Part shown: positions 5,009 through 64,000 of the stretch, piece by piece | How the letters are laid out: each line of letters opens with the position of its first letter | Position numbering within the stretch: the stretch's first letter is position 1 | From: Candidatus Omnitrophota bacterium | GTDB lineage: Bacteria; Omnitrophota; Gorgyraeia; Gygaellales; Profunditerraquicolaceae | NCBI GenBank assembly: GCA_049517335.1 | Contig: JBEKSD010000003.1 | Location: 45,553-109,552 of the forward strand | Direction of reading: 5' to 3' | Length of the DNA stretch: 64,000 bases | Notes under the pieces: generated by a model | Databases searched by the model: none | What the model was told of the DNA's origin: nothing | Seen by the model: only the letters and a program-made list of their open reading frames with translations | Translations under genes and position numbers: made by a program

Positions 5009-5022
5009 CTTTCTCCTTTTTT

Positions 5023-5069
5023 TTAGGGACGTTTTTCAAGCGAGGTTAAAGCTTGAAAAACGTCCCTAA
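5023..5069. repeat. Perfect 19-bp inverted repeat (hairpin) in the rrf2 leader
   Basis: TTAGGGACGTTTTTCAAGC-N9-GCTTGAAAAACGTCCCTAA. Confidence 0.85.
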
Positions 5070-5094
5070 TTTTAAGGCAGTTTAGAGTCGTACC

Positions 5095-5166
5095 TTAGGA
5101 CACTTTACTGCAGCCCTCCTTACAATGGGCTACCGGGCGAAGCATATATTTTACGGTTATATCCAT
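5095..5166 (-). CDS. Putative 23-aa leader peptide MDITVKYMLRPVAHCKEGCSKVS
   Basis: Strong AAGGAGG RBS about 7 nt before the ATG; first ORF after the promoter. Confidence 0.4.
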   Translation of the reverse strand: MDITVKYMLRPVAHCKEGCSKVS

Positions 5167-5187
5167 TCTAGCCCTCCTTTTGGATTA

Positions 5188-5215
5188 AAGATACCATATT
5201 AGTATCATTTGTCAA
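5188..5215 (-). promoter_or_regulatory. Sigma70-type promoter of the rrf2 operon with an overlapping palindromic operator
   Basis: TTGACA-16-TATCTT (TG-extended); GATAC-N7-GTATC palindrome at 5190-5206. Confidence 0.6.
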
Positions 5216-5263
5216 GAAAAATTTTTCTTGTAATTCGGCACTTTAACAATATAATTATGACTA

Positions 5264-48818: not shown

Positions 48819-50033
48819 TTATTTCTCTTTATCCTGTAATTTTGATAAAGAAACGGATTTTTTGGATTCAATCTTTAAAAAACCTTTAATTTTAGTCATT
48901 ATCTTCTTATCCCATCTTGATTCATTAACGGCTTTTTCAACTGCATAGGTGTCTATATCAGCGACTTCATCCCACTTGCCGGCTTCCTTTAACGCTTTTG
49001 ATAATTCTTCCCGTTCTTCGCTTCCCTTAGGAGGACAGGAAACTTTCTGTTTTTCGGCAACTTTAAGCTTATTATTGTTGCCTATGATAATGCTGGATTT
49101 TTCTTCTTCGGCATACTGGATAACCGCTTCTTTTACCTTATCTATTTCCTCATCTATTTTGTCAATCTCTCCCTGTTGCTCACGCTTCTTAGCTACAAGC
49201 TTAGCGAAAGTATTTACAAGCTTTACGCCGCTGTCTTTTAGGTATTCATTTACAGGTAGAGCTTCCACTTTATAGAGGTGCTTTCTCTTGGGGCAAAGGT
49301 CAGGATATACGCACCATTCGCAAAGGCTACTTTCATTCGGTAGGAATTCCTCTGTAGCTTCAATCTTATCAATTAGGACTGCCGTATCATTCTTTAGCTG
49401 CTCCAATTGTTTATCAGTCCTCACAGAGGACATTTCCTTGTCAAAAACCACATAATGCCAGATTAACTTGACCTTATTGACATCATTCCAAGTGTCGCTT
49501 ATGCCAATTTGATACAGAGCAAGCTGTCTATCCTCATCAAAATGCGCCTGTCCGGGCAAGGATCCGGAAGTCTTATAATCATGTATCTCATAAGTATCGT
49601 CTTGTGCTTGGGCTAGCCTATCTATGTAACCCCTAAGCTTATATTTACCGTCCCCATTTAAGTCAATCAAAACCTCCCTCTCAAGACCTAAGACCCTGCT
49701 CTGGTCAAAGGGAGAATAGCGCTTATAATAATCCTCAATGCATTTCCTGCCTATGTTTTTGTAGTCCTCAGCGGTTCTATCTTTCTTAGTAACAATAATA
49801 GTATCGTTATATTCCTTATCCCATTGGCTTTCATAATAACCCAATAGCTCCTTTAAGGAATATGTCTTGCATTTAAGGTCTTTATAGAGTTTCTGCATGG
49901 TTTCGTGGAAACGAGAACCCATAAATGCCTCAATGCCTTCTTGTTCACGCTCAATCTTATCTATGTAGGAAAACTTATACCGGAGAGGACAGGATTCAAA
50001 ACTATTTAATCTGGAATGGGAATATATAGGCAT
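48819..50033 (-). CDS. RecB/Cas4-like PD-(D/E)XK nuclease with Fe-S Cys set and C-terminal coiled coil
   Basis: YSHSRL..F.SCP, GYIDRL...IHDYKTS, QLALY, CEWC.....CP. Confidence 0.85.
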   Translation of the reverse strand: MPIYSHSRLNSFESCPLRYKFSYIDKIEREQEGIEAFMGSRFHETMQKLYKDLKCKTYSLKELLGYYESQWDKEYNDTIIVTKKDRTAEDYKNIGRKCIEDYYKRYSPFDQSRVLGLEREVLIDLNGDGKYKLRGYIDRLAQAQDDTYEIHDYKTSGSLPGQAHFDEDRQLALYQIGISDTWNDVNKVKLIWHYVVFDKEMSSVRTDKQLEQLKNDTAVLIDKIEATEEFLPNESSLCEWCVYPDLCPKRKHLYKVEALPVNEYLKDSGVKLVNTFAKLVAKKREQQGEIDKIDEEIDKVKEAVIQYAEEEKSSIIIGNNNKLKVAEKQKVSCPPKGSEEREELSKALKEAGKWDEVADIDTYAVEKAVNESRWDKKIMTKIKGFLKIESKKSVSLSKLQDKEK

Positions 50034-50095
50034 ATTATTTTTGTTTATTTCCGCCTACCCAAAGATTGATAGGTATTAGTTTACATGCTTTTTAC

Positions 50096-50698
50096 TTACC
50101 TTTTTCTTCTGATAAATTTTCTTATTACTTCGTTAAGATTTATTCCCAAACCAAAAAAATTTGGTTTTAATTCAAGCATATCGACATTATCACCGATTTT
50201 AGTTTTAATTTTCCCTTTCCTACCAACAAAATCCTCTAAACGTCCTGCGAGATTTGATAGGTCTCTCATATCAATAGCCATGCCTCGACCTTGTTCATAT
50301 AATTCTTCAACTAATCTAAAGTTTTTATTGTCGTAATCTTTATCCTCATATCTATTATGCCAAATTTCACCATAGCGAATATCGAGATCCGTGGCTGTTT
50401 TATATAAATTCCTAATTCTTTTCACGTGATGAACTTTAACTTCCTGTTGTATCTCACTTAGTATTTCAGAGATTTCTTTAATACTTGTATCATAAAATTT
50501 TAAGGAATATTGTACTATACCTTGAAAGTCACTGTCTACTTTTTTCCAATATTCTAATTCTTTAAGTTTTCGAATATTTTTAGAAATAATTGTAGTAACT
50601 TCTTCAAGATTCTTAATCCATACCTGTAAGTCAAGAAACATATCATCAAAGGTCTGATGAGAATAATCTGTCATTCCCGCTATCATTGACCTACTCAT
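50096..50698 (-). CDS. Hypothetical helical protein
   Basis: AAGGAG RBS; C-terminal LELKPNFFGLGINLN. Confidence 0.65.
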   Translation of the reverse strand: MSRSMIAGMTDYSHQTFDDMFLDLQVWIKNLEEVTTIISKNIRKLKELEYWKKVDSDFQGIVQYSLKFYDTSIKEISEILSEIQQEVKVHHVKRIRNLYKTATDLDIRYGEIWHNRYEDKDYDNKNFRLVEELYEQGRGMAIDMRDLSNLAGRLEDFVGRKGKIKTKIGDNVDMLELKPNFFGLGINLNEVIRKFIRRKR

Positions 50699-50757
50699 TT
50701 TTACTCCTTATAATTTTCAAGTTTTGAAGTTAAAGTTTGATTAGTTTGAAGTCTTGA

Positions 50758-50982
50758 TTATTTTCTGAAAAGTAAATAAAAAATTATTAAAAAGACGATA
50801 AACGGTATAATCAGAGGAAAACCATATTTTTGAATCTGATTAAGCGAAGGCTTAACAATTAGCCCTTCCCTTTCCTTTTTCCTTGCTTCATTTAAATCCT
50901 TATTAATTTGCCAAAATACACCTATAATTGTTACTATAGCAGTTACAGCCGCAATTATCAGACCCCAAACTGGTATTGTCAT
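50758..50982 (-). CDS. Small 2-TM membrane protein
   Basis: Two hydrophobic segments; GAGG RBS. Confidence 0.6.
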   Translation of the reverse strand: MTIPVWGLIIAAVTAIVTIIGVFWQINKDLNEARKKEREGLIVKPSLNQIQKYGFPLIIPFIVFLIIFYLLFRK

Positions 50983-51018
50983 TCCTTTGATTCCTCGGTA
51001 TCCCTTACTTCAATTGTA

Positions 51019-52137
51019 TTAGCTATTTCTTATGCTTTTAAAATTTTCTACATACTCAGCTAAATCATGATAACTTTTCATTTTGAAGTTCCTAAATATT
51101 GACTTATATCTCTCTGGAATTAGACTGCCTCTTTTAAACATTTCAGGATTTACAACATCTATCTCAAAATTCGCATCCTCATAGTAATGTATTTGTCTGA
51201 ATAGCCATTCAGTATAAAAATCTGTTGGTGGAAAAGAATACCCAATAAAAACAATGCGTTTAGTATATGCAAGCTTTTCACGAGTAAGAAGCCAAAGCTT
51301 ATGTAGAAAATTATCCTGATATACGAGCTTATTAGAAACGGGCGGGATAATGCCTATAGCTGTTTTTTCCTGCCCACAAGACTGACATCTTCGAGAATTT
51401 TTTGAAGCAAATCCTGGAAACTTCCTATTTCTCGTTAAAGGGGATAGGGCGGGCTTTTTGTAGCTCTTGCATTGTCTATTTTGACAAACTATCCAATTAA
51501 ATGAACCATGCAACTTTAAAAATAACCCTCGCCTCTTATATTGTTCAATATTTATATTTTTGTCCTTCATTATTCTTATGTAATTCTTAAATTGGGAAGT
51601 TTTAAGGATTGCCAACGTAGTATCGGCTATAGTATCCCAATTAAAAGAGATGATAGTATCACGGGGTTTAAGTTTAGAAAATAAGCTTATTAAGTGTTCA
51701 CAATGTTGCCCTTCACAACGAATAGTTAACATTAAAGTAATAAAATCTATAAGGGATTTTTTAGCTTTTGAGAAAACTGAACCATACCTATCTCCTTTTC
51801 GCAGCATCTTCTCACCAACATCAAGAAAGGTAAAAACCTCTTCTATATTAATATTTTCCCACTCTTTTGGTTCAAATGATTCTATATTATTTTTTAATCC
51901 CCAACCATAAACTAGAAAATTATTTGTCCCCTCATATGTCATACCAAGAGAGTTTATAAGTCTTTCAGAATGTACATCAGTTTTCTTTTGTAGGAATAAA
52001 TCGTAAAAGAAATTCTTCGCTGAAGGCATCTTTGAAAGAGATTCCCTCCAACTATCCTCAATTGGGTATCTTTTTGCACCCATGGTAGCCCCATTACCTA
52101 AAACAAGCATTGTATTATTACACCCAGCAATACTCAT
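51019..52137 (-). CDS. SIR2-like (SIR2_2) protein with zinc ribbon
   Basis: VLGNGA, ISFNWD, LKLHGS, CxxxxC...CxxC, IIPP, FIGYSF. Confidence 0.85.
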   Translation of the reverse strand: MSIAGCNNTMLVLGNGATMGAKRYPIEDSWRESLSKMPSAKNFFYDLFLQKKTDVHSERLINSLGMTYEGTNNFLVYGWGLKNNIESFEPKEWENINIEEVFTFLDVGEKMLRKGDRYGSVFSKAKKSLIDFITLMLTIRCEGQHCEHLISLFSKLKPRDTIISFNWDTIADTTLAILKTSQFKNYIRIMKDKNINIEQYKRRGLFLKLHGSFNWIVCQNRQCKSYKKPALSPLTRNRKFPGFASKNSRRCQSCGQEKTAIGIIPPVSNKLVYQDNFLHKLWLLTREKLAYTKRIVFIGYSFPPTDFYTEWLFRQIHYYEDANFEIDVVNPEMFKRGSLIPERYKSIFRNFKMKSYHDLAEYVENFKSIRNS

Positions 52138-52156
52138 ATCTTTATAATTATCATTA

Positions 52157-52924
52157 TCATGATTTATCCATGGGCATTGAATTTACCATTTCGACTACAG
52201 CGTCAAAAGTAGCCCATCCCCTTTGTTCTTTAACAACAGTATCAATGCAATATTTAATCGTTGTTACATCATATTGTTTAAGCAATTGACCAATAAATCC
52301 TTCAGAAGCCTCTTTCCAATCTTGAGGGCGTTTTCTATTCCAATAATTTATTACTTCACGAGTATCCTTATGCGATGTATCGCCCGTTAATTCTGCTTTC
52401 CAATTATGCAATATGCCGCACATATAACTGAACCTTTTTTCAACATTTTCCTTGGTAATCTTTGGAAACTTATTACAGGCTATCTCAATAGCTTCTTTAA
52501 TTTTCTCAGGTGGAAGGAATTTTAGAAACTTCCTAATACTTACTTTTCCGCTTTCAGATAGTGAGAATTTATAATTATCCTTTAAATTCCAATAACTATT
52601 AACTTCTTCAACTTGTTTCTCTAAACTCTTTGTTACTTGTTTTAAGAATTTCCTGTATTCTTCTAACTGCAACCTACCTTCTTCCAACTTAGCGTTTTCT
52701 TCGGAATAATCAATCTTACTACCTATCTTGGATAGAAGAACCTTCCCCTTACCCTTGTTGCAATCAAAACATGAAGTAACATAATTTGACATATCTTCTT
52801 TTCCACCCTCACAAACTGGTATTATGTGGTCTACCTCAAGTATGGCGACAGGAGGAATTCTGCCGCAGTATTTACAGGTAAAGTTATCTCTTTTAAAAAC
52901 CTCAAACCTTAATTTTTTATTCAT
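52157..52924 (-). CDS. HNH endonuclease with C-terminal helical domain
   Basis: LRFEVFKRDNFTCKYCG...LEVDHIIP...GG....N...SCFDCN.GK. Confidence 0.88.
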   Translation of the reverse strand: MNKKLRFEVFKRDNFTCKYCGRIPPVAILEVDHIIPVCEGGKEDMSNYVTSCFDCNKGKGKVLLSKIGSKIDYSEENAKLEEGRLQLEEYRKFLKQVTKSLEKQVEEVNSYWNLKDNYKFSLSESGKVSIRKFLKFLPPEKIKEAIEIACNKFPKITKENVEKRFSYMCGILHNWKAELTGDTSHKDTREVINYWNRKRPQDWKEASEGFIGQLLKQYDVTTIKYCIDTVVKEQRGWATFDAVVEMVNSMPMDKS

Positions 52925-52931
52925 TTACTAC

Positions 52932-53153
52932 CTAACGTAAAGATTCAATAACCCGTGTAAGCACTTGCCCAAATCTTTCATCAGCAGCCCAATCGTGAAT
53001 ATCGCCAATGATTCCATCAGGATACTTCTCTTTAAATTTACCCTCTAATTCCTTTGGAACCTCAGTAGCAACAATGTTTGTTTTCTCTAATTTTAACCGT
53101 ATAAAACCAAAGTTTGGAATAAAAACCATTCTTTTTTCCATAATAGCCTCCAT
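52932..53153 (-). CDS. Small hypothetical protein
   Basis: Intact ORF in the operon; GGAGG RBS suggests a start at the second Met. Confidence 0.55.
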   Translation of the reverse strand: MEAIMEKRMVFIPNFGFIRLKLEKTNIVATEVPKELEGKFKEKYPDGIIGDIHDWAADERFGQVLTRVIESLR

Positions 53154-53186
53154 AAAAAAGGCAACCCTTTATTTAGAAAGTTGACC

Positions 53187-53504
53187 TTATTTATTTGTAT
53201 CACTAATTTTAAGTAACAGTATAATAAACAAAACCGCAACAACTAAATCAATGAGCTTCCATGTTGATTTATTTAAATAAACAGGAAATATCGGGTTAAA
53301 TAAAAAAGCAGACAATCCAGTTATTATCATCCATCTTGTTTTCTTAAATTTATAAGCTAGTATACATATTAGACCGCTTGTAATGAATATAACTAGACGA
53401 AGTAATACGTAATAACTATAAGGAAATCTGGCTATTAAACAAAGAAGTAACATTACTATTGAAACAATTAATAAAATCTTTATTAATGCGGCATTTTGCT
53501 TCAT
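53187..53504 (-). CDS. Small membrane protein (DUF6804-like)
   Basis: PYSYYVLLR...LFNPIFPVYL...W..ID motif. Confidence 0.65.
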   Translation of the reverse strand: MKQNAALIKILLIVSIVMLLLCLIARFPYSYYVLLRLVIFITSGLICILAYKFKKTRWMIITGLSAFLFNPIFPVYLNKSTWKLIDLVVAVLFIILLLKISDTNK

Positions 53505-53514
53505 GATTGATTAA

Positions 53515-54378
53515 CTAAAAGAAAAACCACGTTCTATTCCTAATAATTGGTATAACAAGTATTAATATAGGCAAAATTATCAATATCCCAATGATTTTAA
53601 GTTTGCGATACTTCGCATTTTTATTCTTAATAGCCTCTATTGCGTAATAAAAAGCTACTATAATTATAGCCCATATCATTACAAGCCCGAAGACCCTAGT
53701 AATAATCTTTAACAAACCTTTTCCTTCATCTCCGGTAAACATAGCTATAAGCGAATCTAACCAAAATTGTCTTGTAGTTAAAAATTTCGTAGCATCATAT
53801 ATTTGGATTATAGAAAAATCTAGTAGGAATTTAAAAACAGAATAAGTAGCTATTGCGATTAAAACCCAAAGCCTTTTTGAAATGCCCCAAAGGGTAAAGT
53901 TAACTTCATCCCTTATATCTCCAAAATCACTTCTTTTAGCGTAGGAATAACCGCAGTAAGCTCCTATAAATGTAGCAGCAATATGGGATATCAAGCTAAA
54001 TTTATTTAGTGGTGACGCCGCAATCCAATAATCTGTTAACTCAGAAAAGCTAAATCCACCTTTTAGAAAAGGTAAAAAAAGAATAACTGGTAGAGCAAAT
54101 CTTCCCAAAAATCCAAAAGCTAAATAGAAAAACAAGTTAAATTTCCTGAACCAATATGCAAATATGCCAACTATAACTGATACAGTAAAGAAACTATAGA
54201 TAACTCCTAATATACTTAAAATCCATTCTTGTAAACCTGATACTATTAGACCTTCTTTTGCGCAAGCATTGAGAAAATCGTTAATTCTTATAGGCGCTGC
54301 GGAAGCATAATAAAGAAATAAGAATGAGCAAAACAAAATAGCAAATATCAATTGTTTGTTATTCTTAATTTTTTCCAT
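53515..54378 (-). CDS. Multi-pass membrane protein, unknown function
   Basis: About 6-7 hydrophobic segments. Confidence 0.65.
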   Translation of the reverse strand: MEKIKNNKQLIFAILFCSFLFLYYASAAPIRINDFLNACAKEGLIVSGLQEWILSILGVIYSFFTVSVIVGIFAYWFRKFNLFFYLAFGFLGRFALPVILFLPFLKGGFSFSELTDYWIAASPLNKFSLISHIAATFIGAYCGYSYAKRSDFGDIRDEVNFTLWGISKRLWVLIAIATYSVFKFLLDFSIIQIYDATKFLTTRQFWLDSLIAMFTGDEGKGLLKIITRVFGLVMIWAIIIVAFYYAIEAIKNKNAKYRKLKIIGILIILPILILVIPIIRNRTWFFF

Positions 54379-54534
54379 GGCAATTACTCTACCGTATATT
54401 GAACATTAACAAAATCAGCCTTTATTAATTATACCACTTCCGTTTCAAAAATGGTTAAGATCTCATTATGCTTCATCACTCCTGTAATGCGAAATTAGAA
54501 TATATCCTACCCCCTTACTCAATTATAATAAATC

Positions 54535-54664
54535 CAGCATTACCCATCTGTATAAGTAAACTGGCGGGAGAATCTGTCATAGATTAATCTGACTAATGGT
54601 CAATCATACTAAACTCAGCATCACCCATCTGTATAAGTAAACGGACTCGAAAAGTCTGTCATAG
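54535..54664. repeat. Two-copy ~48-bp imperfect direct repeat (81-bp period)
   Basis: CAGCATYACCCATCTGTATAAGTAAAC-N11/12-TCTGTCATAG at 54535-54582 and 54616-54664. Confidence 0.85.
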
Positions 54665-54828
54665 AGTATCCCGTATCAATATCAGGTAATTTCCAGCTAA
54701 ACCCAGATAATCCCAAGGTTTAAAGCTAAATCAGGCGGTTTTTGGTTAAAATAAGCTCTCTCCCGCAAGTTTAGGCTCTAACCCCCATAGACCCCCTAAT
54801 CCCCAGCGTTAGTTTCATAATCAGCACT

Positions 54829-55017
54829 CTAGTGGTGGGTTTTACCAGCTAGCGAATGATTTTTACCACCTATGCCTGCACGATTAGGGTTCTTACCAAA
54901 CCGATACGTATATAATGAGCAGGTTTCAGAATCGCAAAGCCTGACTAAAGAAGGTCTGCCTCCAACACATTCCAGACACTTTGCTCTGATTGCTTTCACT
55001 GGTGTTAAGCATTTCAT
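54829..55017 (-). CDS. Small Cys-rich phage/MGE-type protein
   Basis: TPVKAIRAKCLECVGG....VRLC....CSLYTYRFGKNP; AAGGAGG RBS before ATG 55017. Confidence 0.7.
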   Translation of the reverse strand: MKCLTPVKAIRAKCLECVGGRPSLVRLCDSETCSLYTYRFGKNPNRAGIGGKNHSLAGKTHH

Positions 55018-55138: not shown

Positions 55139-55276
55139 ATAACTCATTAAATTACTCATAAAGACACAATTACTCACAAGACCCCCCCTAGACTCAAATT
55201 AACTCATATGTGTAACTATGAACAAAATAGCAACAAAACTAGTTGTTACACAATATGTATAACAGTAGTTACACAT
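55139..55276. repeat. Repeat-rich putative replication origin
   Basis: ATTACTCA(T/C)A(A)AGAC x2, further ACTCA units, and a perfect 11-bp IR ATGTGTAACTA (55208)/TAGTTACACAT (55266). Confidence 0.5.
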
Positions 55277-55980
55277 TATTGTGTAGCGGGATTTGGGGTT
55301 ACAGGAGTTTTCCAGCATAGAAACCTGTATCCATTAGCCTTTCCTGAAAAAGTGCCCCTTTTACCCTTAACTACCTTTTGAAGCATACCTTCACTGATTA
55401 AATCCTCTATTCTTCTAACAATAGTCATTGGTTCAATTCTTTGTCCATCATTATCCCTTATCATTGCCGCTATCTTTCTGTAGCCGATATATATAATTTC
55501 ACCTGTTTGTTTTTCTAGCTGGAATCTTCTGATATTCTTCAGTATCCAATACATTACATAACCATCTGGGCCTTTATAACGTGCCTCTAGGAAATGCCTT
55601 GCTTCCTCAAAATCAAAAGGGTTCTCTTGAGTGGACTGCTTATAAGAACACTCTTTCAATATGCGGAAGGTGCATTTTTCTTCCGGCTCAATGCAGTAAC
55701 TTTCTAAAGCCTTACAGCCAATGTTACATTCGTGCTTATCTGTCCATTCAACAAAATCAAGAAGCTGCCTCTTTTGTTCATTGTATGCAAGCGGCTTCTC
55801 GCATCTCTGGTTCCACTCTAGGAGTTTATCTTTAACCTCTGATGAACTAAAGCCAATCCTTTTTAGCTCAACAATGATTGCAAAGCTCATCTTACGAAAC
55901 TCATTACCTCTCTTAGCGCCTTGTTCAAAGCAAATCTTTACGCAATCGCGAAGATTATTAAGGTCTTTTTTATCTTCCAT
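55276..55980 (-). CDS. Rep-like protein: primase C-terminal (PriCT/PriL-CTD-like) domain plus winged helix
   Basis: G.RN.....I..ELKRIG......KLLEWN.RC.KPL...E; Cys cluster; YRKIA...TIVRRIEDL...G.L...G...ANGYRF wHTH. Confidence 0.6.
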   Translation of the reverse strand: MEDKKDLNNLRDCVKICFEQGAKRGNEFRKMSFAIIVELKRIGFSSSEVKDKLLEWNQRCEKPLAYNEQKRQLLDFVEWTDKHECNIGCKALESYCIEPEEKCTFRILKECSYKQSTQENPFDFEEARHFLEARYKGPDGYVMYWILKNIRRFQLEKQTGEIIYIGYRKIAAMIRDNDGQRIEPMTIVRRIEDLISEGMLQKVVKGKRGTFSGKANGYRFLCWKTPVTPNPATQ

Positions 55981-56211: not shown

Positions 56212-56829
56212 TTATTTTTTTAGATAAAGCGCTGTCTTATTTTGAATCCTGAGGGCAATTTCCCTGTAACCTGCGGCATTGGGATGGAGAAAATCGCTCT
56301 TCATTGAAGGATTAGTGATAATCTTGTCAAGGATACTTGGAATGAATATCGCTTTTTTCCTGGCGGCTATTCGTGCAAAGAGACCCCGGTAACGCCCCAT
56401 AAACATGCCTGCGCTTATATCTATAAGTGCCACCATTGCGCCTTGAGCCTGTATTCTATCAATCATCTCTTCGGTATTCCTGGTGGTTACTTCTTCAGGA
56501 ACATTCTTTATGAAATCGTTACCTCCAAATTCAATCAATACCAGATAAGGGTCTTTTTGTAATACGTCACTATCCAGACGTTCCAGCCCTTCAGTTGAGG
56601 TGTCGCCGCTTACCCCGGCATTTATCACCGGCATATCTATCAATTTACCCAACTGTGTAGGGAAATCTTCTCCGGTATTTGCCCCATAGCCGAATGTTAT
56701 ACTATCCCCAAAACAAATTATATTCTTACCCCTAGAAGCGGTATTCGCTATTTCTCTTTTTGTGCAACCGATTAACCCAAGAACGCATAAACTTACGAAC
56801 ACGAGAATCAAGAATCTATTTCTTTTCAT
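56212..56829 (-). CDS. SGNH/GDSL arylesterase (TesA-like) lipoprotein
   Basis: Lipobox LIGC; FGDSIT, NAGVSG, GGND, DFLHPN. Confidence 0.9.
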   Translation of the reverse strand: MKRNRFLILVFVSLCVLGLIGCTKREIANTASRGKNIICFGDSITFGYGANTGEDFPTQLGKLIDMPVINAGVSGDTSTEGLERLDSDVLQKDPYLVLIEFGGNDFIKNVPEEVTTRNTEEMIDRIQAQGAMVALIDISAGMFMGRYRGLFARIAARKKAIFIPSILDKIITNPSMKSDFLHPNAAGYREIALRIQNKTALYLKK

Positions 56830-57847
56830 GCCTTAGCCTCAATTGCCCGCAGGCTGCCTCGATATCTTCTCCCCGCGGTTTCCTTAACGTCGCATGCAAG
56901 CCATGCTTCATCAAGTAATCCTTAAACAAGATGATTTCCTGCCTTGGGGGCGGCTCGATATTTAATTCTTTAACAGGATTAGCCGGGATAAGGTTTACCT
57001 TAACTAATTTAAGCTCCTTCAATAGCTTAACCAATTTTTGCGCACTTTCAAGGCTAGAATTCATTCCTTTAATCAAAATATATTCAAAAGTAATCTGCCT
57101 GCCGGTCTTATTTATGAAATCTGCGCAAGCGGCGATCAAATCTTCTAAAGGATAAATTCTATTAACCGGCATAAGCAGTGAGCGCACTTTATCTTCAGCA
57201 GAATGTAACGAAATGGATAACTCAATTTGCAGGCCTTCCTGCGCCAATCTTTCTATCCCCGGGATAACTCCGCTTGTAGAAATAGTAATGCGCCGGGAAC
57301 CAATACCTAAGGCATCGGGTGAATTAATCATTCTCACTGCCTTCATTAAAGAATCGTAATTATCCAAAGGCTCGCCCGTGCCCATAAATACAATATGGGT
57401 TATTTTCTTTGGTCGAATTTGTCTATTCAGGAATAAAACCTCCTCTATTATTTCTCCTGAAGTCAAATTCCTCTCAAAGCCGGCAATGCCGCTGGCGCAG
57501 AAAGAACAGGCGTATTTACAGCCGACCTGGGTTGAAATACAGGCAGTAATGCGCTTTTCCGAAGGGATGAGTACCGACTCGATAAGCTCGTCGTCTTTTA
57601 AGGCAAAGAGGAATTTTTGCGTCCCGTCATGAGATTTGGAAGCCTTAATCAGCTTTAAATCAAATATGCTAAATTCGTTTTTAAGGCTCGTGCGCAAAAA
57701 TACAGGCAGGTTGCTCATTAAGTCAAAATCAACAGCGCCTTTTTTGTAAACCCAGGAAAATATTTGTTTGGCGTGGAATATTGCTTCTTCCCGGTCGAGT
57801 ATAAAATGCTCAAGCTCGCCTAAAGATAATTCCGTAATACTGCCCAT
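56816..57847 (-). CDS. rlmN: 23S rRNA A2503 C2-methyltransferase
   Basis: CISTQVGCKYACSFC, MGTGEP, ISLH, AACGQL. Confidence 0.95.
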   Translation of the reverse strand: MGSITELSLGELEHFILDREEAIFHAKQIFSWVYKKGAVDFDLMSNLPVFLRTSLKNEFSIFDLKLIKASKSHDGTQKFLFALKDDELIESVLIPSEKRITACISTQVGCKYACSFCASGIAGFERNLTSGEIIEEVLFLNRQIRPKKITHIVFMGTGEPLDNYDSLMKAVRMINSPDALGIGSRRITISTSGVIPGIERLAQEGLQIELSISLHSAEDKVRSLLMPVNRIYPLEDLIAACADFINKTGRQITFEYILIKGMNSSLESAQKLVKLLKELKLVKVNLIPANPVKELNIEPPPRQEIILFKDYLMKHGLHATLRKPRGEDIEAACGQLRLRHEKK

Positions 57848-57851
57848 ATTT

Positions 57852-59354
57852 TTATGGCTTTCTTAAAATTTCCTTGTCTACTTTACCGGCGCGGTTCTTG
57901 GGAAGCGAAGAAACAAATTCAAAATAATGCGGAATCTTAAAATGCGCAAGGTGCTGGCGCAGGAAATAACGTAGGTCTTCTTCGTTTACGGTTTTATTTT
58001 CTTTTAAGACTATGAATGCCTTAGGCACTTCTCCCCTTAACTTATCGGTCATTCTCACTACCGCCGTTTCGGCGACATCAGGATGCCTCTGGATGGCGCT
58101 CTCAACTTCCGGCTCAAAAACTATCTCTCCGCCTACTTTAATCATTTCTTTTTTTCTTCCCACGATATAAAGAAACCCTTCTGTGTCAAACCTGCCCAAA
58201 TCTCCGGTGTGGAACCATCCGTTTTTAAGCGTTTCTTGAGTTAACTGCTCGTCTTTAAAATAACCATCGCTAACGACCCAGCTCTTTACAAGCACTTCTC
58301 CGGTTTCGCCGGTTTTTACTTCTTTGTCAGAATCATCTAGAATTTTAACTTCAACCCAGGGAAGCGGCCTGCCTACGCTTTCAATATTTTTTGAGCCCCG
58401 CGGCAGGACAACAGTAGGGGCATTGGTCTCGGTCATCCCCCATCCGTTTAAAAGGTGCGCGTTCGGGCAATATTGATGAAATCGGCGCAGGGCATCGGCT
58501 GAGTTTGAAGCGCCAAAGGTAACCATCCAGCGTAAAGTAGATAAATCAAATGTCTCAAATTCTTTTAAGTGTAAAACCGCATAATACATGGGAGGCACTA
58601 TCCAGAAACAGGTAACTTTAAAGGTTGGTATATTTTTCAGGAATTCCGAGGGGATAAAACGCTCCATTAAAACAAAGGTAAGTCCATGATAAATACAATT
58701 CTGAATGTAAATTAACCCTCCTAAATGCGAAAACGGGAGAGCACATAGCGCAACATCATCTTCTTTTATCCCCCCGACGAAAAAATCCATGGATTTAGGC
58801 GGAGCGCTTAATTGTAAATAGTTGATTAAAACACCCTTGGGTTTGCCGGTGCTGCCTGAGGTATAGAATATAATTGCGTAATCCTTATCTGCAATTTTAA
58901 CTTGCACAACTCCGGTGTCAGTTGCCTGCAGTAAATCAGCAAAGAAAAAGCATCCTTCTTCTTTGTCCTGGCAGGTAATGACCTGTTTTAGCCCTAAGCA
59001 TCTATTTTTCAGGTTCTTTACGCTTAAATTGGCCTTTGGCTTCATAATCAGGAACTTTGCTTCTGAATGCGAAATACAAGAGACCAATTCATCCTCAGTA
59101 AGCATGAAATCCAAAGGAATACAGGTTGCCCCGCTGATCCAAGTCGCAAGGTAAGTAAAAATATATTCCGGCCAGTTCGGAAGGTAGATTGCCACTTTAT
59201 CGCCTTTTTTTAGCCCTAACTTTATAAAGCCGCAGGCAAGGCGCAAACAGCTTTCCTTTAATTGCTTAAAGGTAATCTTCTCTCCCCTGAAAATTACCGC
59301 TGTTTTCAAAGGAGATTGTTCTGCCCTCTTATTTAGAATTTCCGCTATGCTCAT
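57852..59354 (-). CDS. Acyl-CoA ligase (AMP-binding, long-chain type)
   Basis: YTSGSTGKPKG, GWGMTE, TGDLG, GRKKEMI, PKNRAGK. Confidence 0.9.
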   Translation of the reverse strand: MSIAEILNKRAEQSPLKTAVIFRGEKITFKQLKESCLRLACGFIKLGLKKGDKVAIYLPNWPEYIFTYLATWISGATCIPLDFMLTEDELVSCISHSEAKFLIMKPKANLSVKNLKNRCLGLKQVITCQDKEEGCFFFADLLQATDTGVVQVKIADKDYAIIFYTSGSTGKPKGVLINYLQLSAPPKSMDFFVGGIKEDDVALCALPFSHLGGLIYIQNCIYHGLTFVLMERFIPSEFLKNIPTFKVTCFWIVPPMYYAVLHLKEFETFDLSTLRWMVTFGASNSADALRRFHQYCPNAHLLNGWGMTETNAPTVVLPRGSKNIESVGRPLPWVEVKILDDSDKEVKTGETGEVLVKSWVVSDGYFKDEQLTQETLKNGWFHTGDLGRFDTEGFLYIVGRKKEMIKVGGEIVFEPEVESAIQRHPDVAETAVVRMTDKLRGEVPKAFIVLKENKTVNEEDLRYFLRQHLAHFKIPHYFEFVSSLPKNRAGKVDKEILRKP

Positions 59355-59355
59355 A

Positions 59356-60807
59356 TTAAAAACCGTACCAATAATTAACCAAAGGCTTTGCGCCTTCAGT
59401 CTTATCCTGAATAATATTTTTAAGCCGTGTATATTCTAAGAACCCTTCCCTGCCTAGCTCTTTTCCAAAGCCACTTTGTTTAAAACCCCCGTAAGGAAGC
59501 TCGTTAAAAAACATTCCGTAGGTATTCACCCAAATTGTCCCTGCGGAAATTCTTGCGGAAAGTTCTTTTATTTTTGAAACATCCTTGCTCCAAATGCAGG
59601 CAGCCAAACCAAATTTGCTTGTATTTGCCAACTCTGCTGCTTCCTGCAAGGATGAAAATTTATTTATGCAGGTAACCGGGCCAAAAACTTCCTGCTGAAA
59701 GATATCTGCCTTTGGGTTCACTTCGCCAAGCACTGTGGGCTCAAAGAAAAATCCTTCTTTCAATAGGCTATCCCCAGGAATATTACCGCCGCATAATATT
59801 TTTGCCCCCTCTTTTACTGCCTGTTTCAGGAATGCGATAACTTTCTGACGCTGCGCATCGGAAATCAAAGGCCCCATCTGGGTTTCAAAATCACTCCCTA
59901 AGCCTATTTTAATCCGCCGGGCTTTTTCTAAGAAACTAGTGACAAATTTATCGTAGATTTTATCTTCTATTAAGATACGCGACATAGCCGTGCACATCTG
60001 GCCCTGATTCAGGAATATGGAGCAAAGTGAGCCGTTTACCGAAGCTTCCAAATCGCAATCTGCTAAAACAATAGCCGCGGATTTTCCTCCCAGTTCCATA
60101 GTCAACTTTTTGACATTGCCGGAACTGTATTCAATAATTTTCTTTCCCACCTCATTGCTTCCGGTGAAAGAAATCATGTCTACTCTCTTATCGCTACAGA
60201 GCGCCTTGCCGAGTTTCTCTCCACTGCCGTTTAATACTTTAAATACCCCTTCGGGTAACCCTACTTTATGGATAATCTTTTCCAATTCCAGGGCAGTTAA
60301 TGGAGTTAAGCTGGATGGTTTTAAAATAACCGTATTCCCCGCGCTAAGCGCCTGCGCAACTTTCCAGGAAGCGATTAATAAAGGATAATTCCAGGGTACA
60401 ATCAGGACAACTACCCCCATTGGTTCGCGGATAAAGGAGGCATTTACCGCGGCAATTTGGTTGCTGATATTTTTTTCTTCTGCTTTAAGAAAATCCTTTA
60501 AATTATTGGCAAAAAAGTTAAAAGTCTCAGCCGAAGAAGGAATATCCATAAAGGTTGATTCTTTAATCGGCTTACCCGTATTGAAAGTCTCTAACTGAGC
60601 GAGCTCGCCGGCATTATCAAGAATAGCTTGCGCTATTTTTAAGATGAAATCCTTGCGTTCCTCTAAGGAGAGCCTCGGCCAGGGGCCTTTGTCAAAAGCA
60701 ACACGAGCAGCGCTGATTGTCGCATCAATTTCTGCTTCAGAAGCGACATTTACTTCAGCAATAAGTTTTCCATTTGCCGGATTTATTATTTTTTGTTTTG
60801 CGCTCAT
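59356..60807 (-). CDS. Aldehyde dehydrogenase
   Basis: PWNYP, FTGS, ELGGKS, NQGQMC, EVFGP. Confidence 0.93.
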   Translation of the reverse strand: MSAKQKIINPANGKLIAEVNVASEAEIDATISAARVAFDKGPWPRLSLEERKDFILKIAQAILDNAGELAQLETFNTGKPIKESTFMDIPSSAETFNFFANNLKDFLKAEEKNISNQIAAVNASFIREPMGVVVLIVPWNYPLLIASWKVAQALSAGNTVILKPSSLTPLTALELEKIIHKVGLPEGVFKVLNGSGEKLGKALCSDKRVDMISFTGSNEVGKKIIEYSSGNVKKLTMELGGKSAAIVLADCDLEASVNGSLCSIFLNQGQMCTAMSRILIEDKIYDKFVTSFLEKARRIKIGLGSDFETQMGPLISDAQRQKVIAFLKQAVKEGAKILCGGNIPGDSLLKEGFFFEPTVLGEVNPKADIFQQEVFGPVTCINKFSSLQEAAELANTSKFGLAACIWSKDVSKIKELSARISAGTIWVNTYGMFFNELPYGGFKQSGFGKELGREGFLEYTRLKNIIQDKTEGAKPLVNYWYGF

Positions 60808-61805
60808 TTGAATTTCACCTGTTTAAATAATGAAAACAGCCGGGTAAAAGGCACATACCATTTTGAAAGCTGGCCCAGTTGTCCCGAAAGCTTCATCTTC
60901 CCCTGTGTAACTGCGACAAAAGAATCGAGTTTACCTAAAAATACCTGCTCCCAAACCGGACGGGGAGCGGAAATTACAAAAGGCGCATTAGCATCGTTAT
61001 CCAGCCGGATAATCCTCCCCTTTTCAAAAATAAATTTGTAGGCCTCTCCCGTATCATCCAGTTTAACTGCTAACTGCAGAGTCAAATCCAATTCTTTACC
61101 TTTTGAGGCGATAAAATCATCCTTATTTACCAAGTCAACAATAGCCTGAATATGCTCGCGGCTAAACATAGGATAACTGATATCGTTTTTAGTCAGGTCT
61201 TCTTTTAATGCCTCATCCTGCGCATCTAGGGTTTCTTGCTTAAAAAGCCGCGCAATTGAGGCAGTGCGCACAGCTTCTTCCAAGGCTTCAGTTAAATTTA
61301 AAGCATCAGCGAATTTATCGCCAATGGCAACACTACCGTGGTTTTTTAATACCACAAGGTTATCTTGTTTTAATCCTTCAATGACTAACTCCGGCTTGGT
61401 AACCGTAGGTGTTTCCTGTTTTATCACCGGAACTTCACCTAAGTAAAACTTGGTTTCAAAGGTCAGCGCTTTTAAGGAATCATTTAGCGCAAAATACCCA
61501 TTAATCAGCGGCGGATGGCAGTGCACAACCACTTTTGACGGGAAATGCTTATAAACTAAAGAGTGTAGCGGAAGCTCTGAACTGGGATTAGCTTTATCAA
61601 GGCATTTTCCGCTCTCTAATTCTACTTTTACTATATCGCTCTCAACTAAATTGCCTAAATTCGTGCCGCTTGCGGTAATTAGAATATATTTATCATCCAA
61701 CCGGCAGCTGATATTTCCGGATTTAGCCACAGCAAGGCCGGTTTCATAAAGGCGCCTACCCACTTTAATTATTTCTTCTTTAAGAATTTTCTCATTATTT
61801 GGCAT
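60804..61805 (-). CDS. Class II aldolase/adducin fused to a C-terminal SCP2 lipid-binding domain
   Basis: SGNIS, PSSELPLH, HCH and NHG Zn ligands; C-terminal W..VF.GKLD.F.A.TQGKMKLSG.L SCP2 signature. Confidence 0.8.
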   Translation of the reverse strand: MPNNEKILKEEIIKVGRRLYETGLAVAKSGNISCRLDDKYILITASGTNLGNLVESDIVKVELESGKCLDKANPSSELPLHSLVYKHFPSKVVVHCHPPLINGYFALNDSLKALTFETKFYLGEVPVIKQETPTVTKPELVIEGLKQDNLVVLKNHGSVAIGDKFADALNLTEALEEAVRTASIARLFKQETLDAQDEALKEDLTKNDISYPMFSREHIQAIVDLVNKDDFIASKGKELDLTLQLAVKLDDTGEAYKFIFEKGRIIRLDNDANAPFVISAPRPVWEQVFLGKLDSFVAVTQGKMKLSGQLGQLSKWYVPFTRLFSLFKQVKFK

Positions 61806-62721
61806 TACCCACCTCTAAATAAATGTGTTTGGTTATTAATTCTTTTGGCGTTACATCAAAGGCAGGATAAAATCCTTTTACTCCCCGTGGCGCAAGCCGC
61901 ACCCCCTGAAATTCAAGCAACTCCTTATCCGGGCGAATTTCAATTTTTATATCTTTTCCGCTTTTTGCCCTTGAAGGCGGCGGACATAAGACGTAAAAAG
62001 GTATCTTAAAATATTTTGCCAGCAGGGCTAACTGGTAAGTCCCGATCTTATTGGCAATATCTCCGTTAAGCGCCAGATTATCCGCTCCGACCATAACTTT
62101 GCTCACCTTACCCAGCGACATAACCGAGGCTGCCATACTATCAGTAATCACGGTAACATTATAACCAGCCTCGTGCAATTCCCAGGCAGTAAGCCGTGAG
62201 CCTTGCAAATACGGTCGTGTTTCGGCAACAAAAAAACTTATCTTCTTATTTTGTTTCTCGGCAAGCTCAGCGATTAAAGGCATTAAGCCGCTGACATTAC
62301 AATACGTCAAGACCACATCCCCGTCTTTTAAAAGGTGGGCTGCTTCTTCTGCCTGTCTGATGCGCGCATTTTTTAAGGACTCTAAAAAACCAAAAATACA
62401 TTTATCTATCCGCACACCTTGGCTAGCCCAGCCTAAGACCATATCGGTTAAAACTTTAAATGGCAGTGTGGGGCGCGTTTTATTAAGAGTTACGGCGACC
62501 TTTACTAAATCTTTTTTTTGCTCTAAAGAAAGCAGGAATGTATACATTACTAATAATACCTGCCCCACTGCGCGCGTTTTCATCTCCTTAATCGCCTTGG
62601 CTGCCTGCTGATAATTATGCGCTCTTATATATTTTACCTTTTTAGGCAGCAAAGTCTCATCTAAGATATAAATTGTGCCCTTCTTTAACTCAATGGGCCA
62701 GAAAAGCGGAGAAAATCTCAT
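61795..62721 (-). CDS. mtnA: Methylthioribose-1-phosphate isomerase-like (eIF2B-alpha family), divergent
   Basis: TRPT, TYCN, ETRPYLQGSRLTAWEL, NGDIANKIGTY, PAFDVTP. Confidence 0.8.
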   Translation of the reverse strand: MRFSPLFWPIELKKGTIYILDETLLPKKVKYIRAHNYQQAAKAIKEMKTRAVGQVLLVMYTFLLSLEQKKDLVKVAVTLNKTRPTLPFKVLTDMVLGWASQGVRIDKCIFGFLESLKNARIRQAEEAAHLLKDGDVVLTYCNVSGLMPLIAELAEKQNKKISFFVAETRPYLQGSRLTAWELHEAGYNVTVITDSMAASVMSLGKVSKVMVGADNLALNGDIANKIGTYQLALLAKYFKIPFYVLCPPPSRAKSGKDIKIEIRPDKELLEFQGVRLAPRGVKGFYPAFDVTPKELITKHIYLEVGNAK

Positions 62722-63470
62722 TACTTACCTTCCAGTTTTTTAACTACCCCTAAAGCGATCTTGATTAAATTGCTTTCCGCCATGTAATAAAGCGGGTTCA
62801 TAAAGCCCATCTCGCCTGTTACTACGTTATCGCTAACCGCTAAAATTGAGCCGGCTTTGATTTTGTAGGTTTGGGCAATGGTAAGCAGCGTAGAAGAAAC
62901 CATATCTACGGCTTTAGCTCCTTCTTTGCGTTTTGCTTCAACAATTTCTTTTGTTTCGCGAAGCAATGCGTCGGTAGTCCAGCAGGTGCCACGATACACA
63001 TTAACTCCCATTCCCTTGGCCACATCATACAAGGTATCGGCTATTTTCTTATCGGCTAACGTCTTAAAATCCTTATCTACATAATAAGGAGTAACTCCGT
63101 CACCGCGGATAATGTTATCCACCACGAATAAATCCCCGACTTTGATATTTTCATCCAAAGACCCGCAGGTGCCGATACGGATAATATTCGGAATTCCTGC
63201 ATTACACATAACCTCTGTTGTAATGGAAGTGTCAGTTGAGAACCTGCCGCCGTTAATCGCGGTTACTCTTATGCCTTCAAGATTACCCGTGTACATCGTG
63301 TATTCCATAAAAGAAAAATTCTTAACCGGATTTTCAATTTTCTTTAATAGCACTTCCAGCCTGTCCTTTGGCCCGGGCACAATGGCGTATTTGCCCACAT
63401 CCTGCGGCCGCAGCTGCACCATATCCGTCAAATCTTTACCAGTTAGATGAACATCCTTAACCATTTGCAT
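62721..63470 (-). CDS. Nucleoside phosphorylase (PNP/UDP family), divergent
   Basis: IVPGP..R, IIRIGTCG, IRGDG, TTDA..RE, VDMV, VSDN. Confidence 0.85.
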   Translation of the reverse strand: MQMVKDVHLTGKDLTDMVQLRPQDVGKYAIVPGPKDRLEVLLKKIENPVKNFSFMEYTMYTGNLEGIRVTAINGGRFSTDTSITTEVMCNAGIPNIIRIGTCGSLDENIKVGDLFVVDNIIRGDGVTPYYVDKDFKTLADKKIADTLYDVAKGMGVNVYRGTCWTTDALLRETKEIVEAKRKEGAKAVDMVSSTLLTIAQTYKIKAGSILAVSDNVVTGEMGFMNPLYYMAESNLIKIALGVVKKLEGK

Positions 63471-63502
63471 CTTATTTCTCCTTTTATGTTATTTTATGAA
63501 CT

Positions 63503-63567
63503 CGCGGGTCCTGCCTGCCGCGCCATTCTACCATACTCGCTCTTCGCTACGCGCGACAGGATCCTCG
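63503..63567. repeat. GC-rich imperfect hairpin (REP-like) upstream of the phosphorylase operon
   Basis: CGCGGGTCCTG...CAGGATCCTCG outer stem and CGCGC/GCGCG inner stem. Confidence 0.5.
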
Positions 63568-63686
63568 GTTTGTTAGCCACCCGAAAAAAATTAACTACTC
63601 CCTAGCTTTCTTTTCTAAGAGGACGCCCTTCTATTTTTTTACGCATTTGTTGGATATTCTCCTTAAGTACCGTGTCCCCGGAATTC

Positions 63687-64000
63687 TTATTCTTTTACTA
63701 CTTCAATGTGGTCGAAATTATACCACTGGCCGTTTTCATCTCCTGAATATTCAATATACGCCCTAATTATGCTTCCCGGATTAATTATCAGATTTTTATC
63801 GATAAAATCCCTTGGCCTTATAGCGCGGACCTCCATTATTTTTCCCGGAGTATAAACATCGCAAGTCATTGTTTCAGAAATTCCCGGCTTCACCATTTTT
63901 TCTACCTTAATTATTTGTATTTTCATACCTACAGAGATTAAATCTTTCGTAATGTATTCACCGTTCTTGACCAGAGTTTCATTTATTTCTAAAACCTGCG
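63687..64000 (-). CDS. Hypothetical protein (5' end beyond the window)
   Basis: The reading frame stays open upstream of the listed ATG to the window edge (QVLEINETLVKNGEYITKDLISVG-MKIQ...). Confidence 0.55.
   Translation of the reverse strand, partial: QVLEINETLVKNGEYITKDLISVGMKIQIIKVEKMVKPGISETMTCDVYTPGKIMEVRAIRPRDFIDKNLIINPGSIIRAYIEYSGDENGQWYNFDHIEVVKE

Follow-up and report, generated by a model that had tools for sequence, protein, structure and literature searches.

We analyzed a 64,000-nucleotide stretch of DNA (hereinafter the window) from a Candidatus Omnitrophota bacterium (GenBank assembly GCA_049517335.1, contig JBEKSD010000003.1, positions 45,553 to 109,552), in which a minus-strand operon encodes a nucleoside phosphorylase (PNP'), an MtnA-like isomerase (ISO'), a class II aldolase fused to a C-terminal SCP2 domain, an aldehyde dehydrogenase (ALDH), and an AMP-forming acyl-coenzyme A (CoA) ligase. 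These five genes constitute a conserved module, which we regard as a new version of the dihydroxyacetone phosphate (DHAP) shunt. All the readings considered here share one chemistry, whereby a nucleoside would be converted via a pentose-1-phosphate and a pentulose-1-phosphate to DHAP and an aldehyde, R-CH2-CHO, with the latter then oxidized to R-CH2-COOH and activated as a thioester. Our preference, which is tentative and falls somewhat short of an even chance, is that the module is a dedicated recycling arm taking 5'-deoxyadenosine to DHAP and an acetyl-thioester on behalf of a neighboring gene cluster centered on ketosynthase (KS) genes and a B12-binding radical S-adenosylmethionine (SAM) gene. 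The substrates, the products, and the part played by the SCP2 domain are deduced throughout from sequence, fold, and gene neighborhood.

The operon and the conservation of its five-gene module

Seven minus-strand open reading frames (ORFs) run head to tail from 56212 to 63470 in the ORF list of the window, the successive junctions in transcription order being a 1-nt overlap, an 11-nt overlap, a 4-nt overlap, a 1-nt gap, a 4-nt gap, and a 14-nt overlap. The features of the region are as follows:

62721..63470, minus strand: PNP', phosphorylase of the DeoD/Udp-like hexameric type (249 aa; PF01048)
61795..62721, minus strand: ISO', MtnA-like pentose-1-phosphate isomerase (308 aa; PF01008)
60804..61805, minus strand: aldolase-SCP2 fusion ORF
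61263..61778, minus strand: class II (metal-dependent) aldolase domain, residues 10-181 of the fusion (PF00596)
60807..61190, minus strand: SCP2-fold domain, residues 206-333 of the fusion (PF02036 and predicted fold)
59356..60807, minus strand: NAD(P)-dependent aldehyde dehydrogenase, ALDH (483 aa; PF00171)
57852..59354, minus strand: AMP-forming acyl-CoA (or acyl-acyl carrier protein [ACP]) ligase (500 aa; PF00501 and PF13193)
56816..57847, minus strand: rlmN, radical SAM rRNA/tRNA methyltransferase (TIGR00048)
56212..56829, minus strand: GDSL-family hydrolase (PF13472) whose N-terminus is of lipoprotein type; the run ends with this gene
63492..63594, minus strand: GC-rich hairpin repeat with a covarying stem in the 5' leader of the operon

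The ORF coordinates and the Pfam and NCBIfam identities agree with a preliminary description of the locus as five tightly coupled genes followed by rlmN, and none of the first five proteins reaches an NCBIfam equivalog cut-off. At 42.2%, the G+C content of the operon equals the genome mean (41.9%), and we therefore take it to be native DNA. The contig, and with it the window, ends just upstream of the operon; the genome measures 1.45 Mb and is 92% complete.

Searches with the aldolase of the window recovered 76 related loci (aldolase identity 61-78%; hereinafter lineage A), many of them cut by contig ends. With presence called from tblastn matches of at least 50% query coverage, PNP' was found in 55 of these, ISO' in 69, the aldolase in all 76, ALDH in 70, and the ligase in 51; this recurrence argues that the five-gene arrangement is not due to chance. 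Where at least 1.7 kb follows ALDH (60 loci), the ligase comes directly after it in 36 and after an insert of 0.7-4.4 kb in 14, while 10 further ALDH-bearing loci have too little DNA beyond ALDH for the ligase to be judged. The second set comprises 12 metagenome loci (lineage B; G+C content 54-62%), whose aldolase is about 43% identical to that of the window. Here, all six long loci, two of which have an identical layout, display the order PadR, ligase, PNP', ISO', a short IF-2B-like ORF, aldolase-SCP2, and ALDH. Thus, ALDH and the ligase, earlier proposed to be conserved neighbors of the other genes, are kept in both lineages; since the ligase stays with the other four genes even at the opposite end of the module, we interpret the association as a functional link rather than an inherited order. 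PNP' is 80-88% identical across the lineage-A loci where RlmN is only 46-62% identical, and this far stronger conservation suggests heavy use of PNP'.

The inserts scanned between ALDH and the ligase (18 ORFs from nine loci, with six ORFs compared with NCBIfam) fall into two kinds. One contains a PlsC-type acyltransferase gene with DUF362, PurU-like, and DUF748 genes. The other, present within the module in 8 of the 76 lineage-A loci (L058:1170-2977, L045:4622-6510, L054, L064, L065, L069, L070, and L076), pairs a threonine-dehydrogenase-like Zn-dehydrogenase with an LsrF-type thiolase. The two thiolases scanned (L058 and L045) score 346 and 363 bits against NF006081 (cut-off 297), and that of L058 is 44% identical to Escherichia coli LsrF and retains the Lys aligned with residue 203. 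Neither an LsrF-like protein nor a homolog of this Zn-dehydrogenase was found in the genome studied here.

Other departures from the basic layout were also seen. In locus L002, one of five from close relatives (L001-L005), an opposite-strand short-chain dehydrogenase/reductase (SDR) gene separates ISO' from the aldolase, and ALDH is not followed by a ligase. In lineage B, the short ORF between ISO' and the aldolase (L077:7529-8008, with matching ORFs in L078-L088) encodes 159 residues resembling the C-terminal half of IF-2B/MtnA but devoid of the catalytic GAD motif, and may represent either a remnant or a partner lacking catalytic activity. Upstream of PNP' on the same strand, lineage-A loci carry a CrcB fluoride-channel gene (18/76) and a DUF190 gene (20/76), e.g., both at L018:5596-6302; the DUF190 gene ends next to the PNP' start in 15 loci. 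The same slot in L016 is occupied by HEPN/nucleotidyltransferase and HTH/Fic cassettes, and on account of these other cassettes it looks like a variable insertion site.

The proteins of the module

The N-terminal domain of the fusion protein is an Aldolase_II domain (PF00596, 129 bits), the AlphaFold2 model of which (predicted local distance difference test score [pLDDT] 92) has YgbL, FucA, AraD, and the aldolase of the Bacillus thuringiensis 5-deoxyribose pathway (6btg) as its top Foldseek matches. Across 31 fused homologs, down to 24% identity, the residues G30, N31, S33, E77, H95, H97, and H156 are invariant; in E. coli FucA, the motifs aligned with them are GNVS, PSSE, HNH, and HHG. We take the three His to be the metal ligands, E77 the catalytic Glu, and GN.S the phosphate motif. 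The genome encodes a single class II aldolase.

The C-terminal domain matches SCP2 (PF02036) marginally in the window protein (21.9 bits against a gathering cut-off of 21.3) and at 23.6 bits in a lineage-B protein; PF02036 is also among the precomputed annotations of many homologs. When residues 206-333 were modeled alone from 43 aligned sequences (pLDDT 94), Foldseek returned as its best match the Thermus thermophilus SCP2 protein 2cx7 (query-normalized TM-score [TMq] 0.82, root-mean-square deviation 1.9 Å over 129 columns), a structural agreement which establishes the suspected SCP2 fold of this region. Further matches include 1wfr, the SCP2 domains of alkylsulfatases, UbiJ-SCP2, and the SCP2L domain of MFE-2; in all, 40 PDB chains match at E ≤ 0.001, those listed being mostly SCP2 proteins or domains. 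Tethering of the aldolase to a lipid-handling complex and formation of a lid are our guesses for what the domain does. All named relatives of the protein come from Candidatus Omnitrophota metagenome-assembled genomes (MAGs) or are labeled only 'bacterium' or 'uncultured Planctomycetales'; this presents a phylum-restricted fusion that should be easy to express and assay. Separately, residues 368-628 of a 694-residue protein (P0148) match aldolase-SCP2, and this protein may be a further fusion, perhaps with an isomerase. Our literature searches turned up neither an aldolase-SCP2 fusion nor the five-gene module nor a dehydrogenase/LsrF bypass.

PNP' belongs to the PNP_UDP_1 family (PF01048, 121 bits in the Pfam scan). 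A PDB sequence search places it closest to uridine and DeoD-type purine phosphorylases (top match, uridine phosphorylase 3qpb, 1.4e-26), and its top NCBIfam model is likewise uridine phosphorylase (112.7 against a cut-off of 280.3). It falls below the cut-offs of the HpnG model TIGR03468 (44.5 vs 187.1) and the futalosine hydrolase model (21.9 vs 124.7), and its Protein Atlas matches are to generic PNP_UDP_1 clusters only. An alignment with E. coli DeoD, Udp, and MtnN and eight family members indicates that the Udp-specific insert is missing from PNP', while R37, R98, T101, D214 (purine-type Ser-Asp), and His8 are retained; R37 and R98 are presumably the phosphate Arg residues. Two positions are altered consistently. 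M55 stands where DeoD and Udp have an Arg, which we take to be the one contributed by the neighboring subunit, and is Met or Phe in all eight family members. V191 replaces the (E/D)ME-motif Glu of DeoD, Udp, and MtnN, with Val at this position in all eight. In the classical enzymes, this Glu binds the ribose 2'/3'-OH, and the N-terminal His of DeoD and Udp contacts the 5'-OH. The PNP' family further possesses an invariant NGGRFS loop, which holds a new invariant Arg.

ISO' (PF01008, IF-2B/MtnA-like, 190 bits) passes the subfamily model TIGR00524 (194 > 185.85), fails the MtnA equivalog TIGR00512 (220.6 < 279), and has 1t9k as its top PDB match (1e-49). It retains the MtnA active-site Cys of the T[HY]CN motif (TYCN in ISO') and the Asp of GAD; however, a 7-residue loop found in the genome's own MtnA (DYGTALG) is missing from all six operon isomerases aligned. 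As a canonical MtnP (TIGR01694, 304.7 > 274.85) and a canonical MtnA (TIGR00512, 405 > 279) are both encoded on other contigs, we consider PNP' and ISO' to be specialized paralogs.

ALDH scores 538 bits against PF00171 and reaches no NCBIfam cut-off (503 vs 668.6 for betaine-aldehyde dehydrogenase); its top PDB matches are betaine-aldehyde and phenylacetaldehyde dehydrogenases, and its ELGGKS and GQMCTA sequences presumably represent the motifs that carry Glu and Cys in hydrolytic ALDHs. The ligase has PRK06187 as its top NCBIfam model (421.5 vs a cut-off of 476) and is the sole match in the genome to the Acs model TIGR02188, the cut-off of which it does not reach (195 vs 724.95 bits). The PDB and NCBIfam matches of ALDH and the ligase did not narrow their substrates. 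As far as sequence comparison can tell, the general nucleoside-to-acyl-thioester scheme of the preliminary description fits every catalytic motif that we checked.

The neighboring cluster and the possible roles of the module

In lineage B (loci L077-L087), ALDH is followed by a gene for a B12-binding radical SAM protein and then by genes for a PanE-like reductase, a TIGR04076 protein, and two KS proteins. In the genome studied here, the corresponding cluster occupies another contig (C19:1-12000, locus L089), with genes for YkuD, AccA, PadR, a PanE-like protein, TIGR04076, KS1, KS2, and the B12-binding radical SAM protein, followed by a PF04199 cyclase, SRPBCC, SDR, an unknown ORF, and Amidohydro_2 up to the contig end. 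In lineage A, this block shares its strand with PNP' and leads directly into it, an ACP gene coming after that for the radical SAM protein. Within the cluster, the module changes position as a unit. KS1 possesses the Cys/His/His triad while KS2 has lost all three residues and is predicted to be a chain-length-factor (CLF)-like protein; the cluster is of a type II polyketide synthase/fatty acid synthase-like kind. It is probably what antiSMASH labels 'ladderane' in Omnitrophota, PMC9902471 reporting such clusters, of unknown function, from MAGs of this phylum. The B12-binding radical SAM protein itself scores 81.8 against the ladderane-associated TIGR04072 (cut-off 360), matches BchE/HpnJ-type models below their cut-offs, and has only distant PDB relatives (AprD4, TokK, the radical SAM core protein 9ccb, and CysS).

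We examined the co-occurrence of the two systems in 201 evenly sampled Omnitrophota genomes, with the radical SAM ortholog called at E ≤ 1e-80. The aldolase was matched in 40 genomes (in four, the aldolase half only, at 35-39% identity; in one, residues 4-206 only) and the radical SAM ortholog in 34. Both genes are present in 33 genomes, the aldolase alone in three (all fragmented), the radical SAM gene alone in one, and neither in 164. Of the 33 genomes, 28 have both genes on the same contig, separated by 1.6-9.5 kb. Because related genomes are not independent, we treat this as evidence of linkage and not as a statistical test. In the same sample, SAM_HAT (fluorinase-family) genes occur in 42 genomes, mostly in module-less families, with G059 and G195 as the only module-bearing exceptions.

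The radical SAM gene that tracks the module is therefore the B12-binding one of the adjacent KS/CLF cluster and not rlmN, which had been put forward as the possible partner. Owing to the contig end, that cluster is invisible in the window. RlmN is an ordinary equivalog (TIGR00048, 382.4 vs 290), and its gene is present in 50 of the 76 lineage-A loci and in none of the 12 of lineage B; most likely it is a housekeeping passenger, and its adjacency to the module looks incidental. Hence, what stands of the preliminary interpretation is the SCP2 domain, the ALDH/ligase neighborhood, and the general scheme; the role given to rlmN does not. The GDSL protein (PF13472, 95 bits; N-terminus ...VLGLIGC) is encoded in 43 of the 76 lineage-A loci and, again, in 0 of the 12 lineage-B loci.

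In our favored reading, every turnover of the B12-binding radical SAM enzyme of the cluster would release 5'-deoxyadenosine, thereby feeding the module. PNP' would phosphorolyze it (or a close 5'-deoxy-nucleoside) to the base and 5-deoxyribose-1-phosphate, ISO' would convert the latter to 5-deoxyribulose-1-phosphate, and the predicted zinc aldolase would split this into DHAP and a C2 aldehyde; ALDH would then oxidize the aldehyde to the acid, which the ligase would join to CoA (or ACP). We favor R = H on account of the precedent of the Drd pathway, the paralogy with the mtn genes, the genome's heavy load of radical SAM proteins (28 such domains score above the Pfam cut-off), and the LsrF-type bypass. 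Regarding the last of these, oxidation of 5-deoxyribulose-1-phosphate at C4 would yield 3-hydroxy-2,4-pentanedione-5-phosphate, the known substrate of LsrF; hence, the inserted Zn-dehydrogenase and LsrF-type thiolase could convert the 5-deoxypentulose-1-phosphate to DHAP and acetyl-CoA or acyl-CoA without ATP, a suggestion that is directly testable. If this reading is right, the module is the first case found of 5'-deoxyadenosine recycling being carried to a thioester, by a route built from a different phosphorylase lineage and co-inherited with a particular radical SAM biosynthetic cluster.

Several observations weigh against the recycling of 5'-deoxyadenosine. Some concern the integrity of the module: 10 of the 60 evaluable lineage-A loci have no ligase, and L001-L005 lack PNP', the slot of which is taken in L002, the only one of these scanned, by a class IV aminotransferase gene (4920-5807). 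PNP' is not MtnP-like (TIGR01694, 24.3 vs 274.85), and in the alignment it keeps the N-terminal His and has lost the ribose-binding Glu; nevertheless, it may work like an MtnP-type phosphorylase despite the low score. The SCP2 domain is conserved as strongly as the catalytic domain, and it would have no role were the product acetaldehyde. The top PDB matches of the ligase are FadD5, feruloyl-CoA synthetase, and 4-coumarate ligases, and the substrates of these closest relatives of solved structure are fatty or aromatic acids. Its WGMTET motif aligns with WWQTET of E. coli Acs, the second Trp of which restricts that enzyme to acetate, and with Gly in place of this Trp the ligase looks built for an acid larger than acetate. 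Finally, in Omnitrophota families that have no cluster, the module is missing as well (0 of 63 genomes in family f30), yet 5'-deoxyadenosine has to be disposed of there, too.

Three of these points, namely the conservation of the SCP2 domain, a ligase pocket of non-acetate type, and the absence of the module where there is no cluster, keep alive a reading with a hydrophobic R, which is the strongest alternative even if we deem it rather unlikely; it ties the lipophilic substrate of the preliminary description to a concrete cluster. Here, a radical SAM enzyme of the cluster would attach the 5'-deoxyadenosyl radical to an unsaturated chain of acyl or polyketide type, and the module would strip adenine and DHAP from the adduct, such that the chain gains two ribose carbons and ends in an aldehyde, which ALDH and the ligase would turn into an acyl-CoA or acyl-ACP re-entering the KS/CLF system. 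The module would then be a biosynthetic arm rather than a salvage route, with two carbons of the SAM ribose kept as an acyl thioester that primes elongation, a proposal we likewise hold to be rather unlikely. HpnH/HpnG (adenosylhopane) and MqnE/MqnB (aminofutalosine) provide precedents, each combining adenosyl-radical addition with subsequent base removal by a PNP_UDP_1 enzyme. The FadD/4-coumarate ligase-like acyl ligase with its Gly at the Acs Trp position and the conserved fusion of an SCP2 fold to the aldolase are in keeping with such a lipophilic substrate. So is the setting: the module sits inside a cluster of KS1, the CLF-like KS2, ACP, SRPBCC and PF04199 cyclases, SDR, a PanE-like protein, and the B12-binding radical SAM protein, it moves en bloc and nearly always co-occurs with the radical SAM gene, canonical MtnP and MtnA are already available in the genome, and both the sugar and the phosphate site of PNP' are altered. 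However, to our knowledge the known adenosylating radical SAM enzymes have no B12 domain, and the cluster enzyme lies below the BchE/HpnJ-type cut-offs and has no close solved relative. Moreover, PNP' scores only 44.5 against the 187 needed for HpnG, its conserved His8 points to a 5' group that is polar, an SCP2 fold is no proof of lipid binding, and no intermediate is known. Were it true, this would be a new way to build carbon chains from SAM, the third example of SAM ribose built into a product after adenosylhopane and aminofutalosine, and the first to yield an acyl-CoA. That the explanation lies outside all those considered here seems to us distinctly unlikely.

We hold it improbable that the module serves purine-nucleoside catabolism, with adenosine, inosine, or guanosine converted via ribose-1-phosphate and, by ISO', ribulose-1-phosphate to DHAP and glycolaldehyde, and the latter to glycolate that is perhaps activated; scavenged nucleosides would thereby feed a host-dependent nanobacterium. 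The DeoD/Udp-like rather than MtnP-like character of PNP', with its Asp214 and His8, would suit this role, as would its 80-88% identity where RlmN has 46-62% and the failure to find deoB (phosphopentomutase) in the 92%-complete genome. Nonetheless, PNP' lacks the Glu that binds the ribose 2'/3'-OH, we know of no direct ribose-1-phosphate isomerase of the MtnA type, and we see no evident purpose for a glycolate-CoA ligase. Further, the module follows the KS/B12 radical SAM cluster and not the whole phylum, and the SCP2 domain goes unexplained. A parallel for the aldolase step does exist in haloarchaea, where a ribulose-1-phosphate aldolase yielding glycolaldehyde is known (PMC9700705).

Very improbable, in our estimate, is the supply of an unusual small starter unit, e.g., via 5'-methylthioadenosine (MTA), 2-(methylthio)acetaldehyde, and methylthioacetate to a thioester priming the KS/CLF pair. 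An ANL ligase, an ACP, and a KS/CLF pair are the usual combination for type II loading of non-acetate starters, and the ligase pocket does look larger than an acetate pocket; but for MTA the genome has a canonical MtnP and a canonical MtnA at other sites, the cluster shows no sign of sulfur chemistry, and the SCP2 domain is still left without explanation. In other bacteria, the DHAP shunt does process MTA (PMC12632272 and PMC10986504), which would fit such a use. Organofluorine metabolism, in which 5'-fluoro-5'-deoxyadenosine would give fluoroacetaldehyde, fluoroacetate, and its CoA ester, is hardly credible: the enzyme order is that of the Streptomyces cattleya route, and CrcB (18/76) and DUF190 (20/76) genes do lie upstream of PNP', but SAM_HAT has no match in this 92%-complete genome or in the 17 sampled genomes of its family and, among the module-bearing genomes of the 201, is confined to G059 and G195, this genome has no CrcB, and the site upstream of PNP' is also home to other cassettes, toxin-antitoxin ones among them.

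Two features outside the coding region of the module were also noted. The leader (63471-63690) has no Rfam match at E ≤ 1, and in this genome the strict hairpin pattern occurs only upstream of PNP' and of mtnA. The hairpin has a conserved base (GCGGGUG(G/A)C ... CAGGACCCGC) and a variable, covarying inner stem, with a length of about 60-130 nt. A covariance model of it (R1) finds three copies in this genome (window 63492-63594, C17:45955-46057, and C1:223188-223289, all on the minus strand) and detects it in 10 of 18 genomes of the family. A single genome has at most 14 copies, which occur in either orientation and are frequently located at the ends of contigs. In view of these dispersed copies, we reject a riboswitch or an operon-specific regulator in the leader; the hairpin is probably a REP- or MITE-like (repetitive extragenic palindromic or miniature inverted-repeat transposable) element of this Omnitrophota family. 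Elsewhere in the window, positions 50000-55000 have a G+C content of 32.6% against 41.9% for the genome and contain ORFs without family matches (e.g., 55276-55980); this stretch may be foreign DNA.

Comparison with known systems

The closest counterpart of the module is the DHAP shunt, including the Drd pathway (MtnP, or MtnN with MtnK/DrdK; MtnA/DrdI; Ald2/DrdA). The two have in common the three steps, the superfamilies, and paralogy to the mtn genes, with the module possessing an MtnA-family isomerase that retains the Cys and Asp and a FucA-type aldolase that retains the three His and the Glu. The first step differs: in place of an MtnP-type phosphorylase, or a nucleosidase and a kinase, the module has a DeoD/Udp-like phosphorylase with changed Arg and Glu positions. 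Likewise, its isomerase is devoid of the 7-residue loop, its aldolase has acquired a C-terminal SCP2 domain, and it adds a conserved ALDH and CoA ligase, the whole being embedded in a KS/CLF and B12-binding radical SAM cluster. As described by Beaudoin et al. (PMC6079011), a route for 5-deoxyribose comprising either a kinase or a phosphorylase, together with an isomerase as well as a class II aldolase, was shown in vitro, and the Bacillus drd genes are paralogs lying beside mtn genes.

In gene content, the module also resembles the fluoroacetate pathway of S. cattleya and two adenosylation routes. The former uses a phosphorylase, an isomerase, an aldolase, and an aldehyde dehydrogenase, in this order, on a 5'-substituted 5'-deoxyadenosine. 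The module displays the same enzyme order and adds the CoA ligase and the SCP2 domain; no fluorinase-family gene was found in this genome or in its family. HpnH/HpnG and MqnE/MqnB likewise place a radical SAM enzyme beside a PNP_UDP_1 enzyme cleaving the base off a C5'-substituted adenosine, with a hydrophobic substrate; unlike the module, these routes have no isomerase or aldolase step, PNP' falls below both the HpnG and the futalosine hydrolase cut-offs, and the radical SAM protein neighboring the module is B12-binding and below the HpnJ/BchE cut-offs.

The thiolase found in 8 of the 76 lineage-A loci is akin to LsrF of autoinducer-2 (AI-2) breakdown, the two copies scanned lying above the equivalog cut-off. 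The difference is that its substrate in the module would arise from a 5-deoxypentulose phosphate and not from AI-2; moreover, the ORFs scanned in stretches of the loci included neither LsrK nor LsrG nor an identifiable Lsr transporter. Lastly, the antiSMASH 'ladderane' clusters outside anammox bacteria similarly combine KS genes with a B12-binding radical SAM gene, and the part of PMC9902471 describing them makes no mention of a nucleoside-processing module. Whether the module recycles 5'-deoxyadenosine or processes an adenosylated chain, it provides a handle on these 'ladderane-type' clusters of the Omnitrophota.

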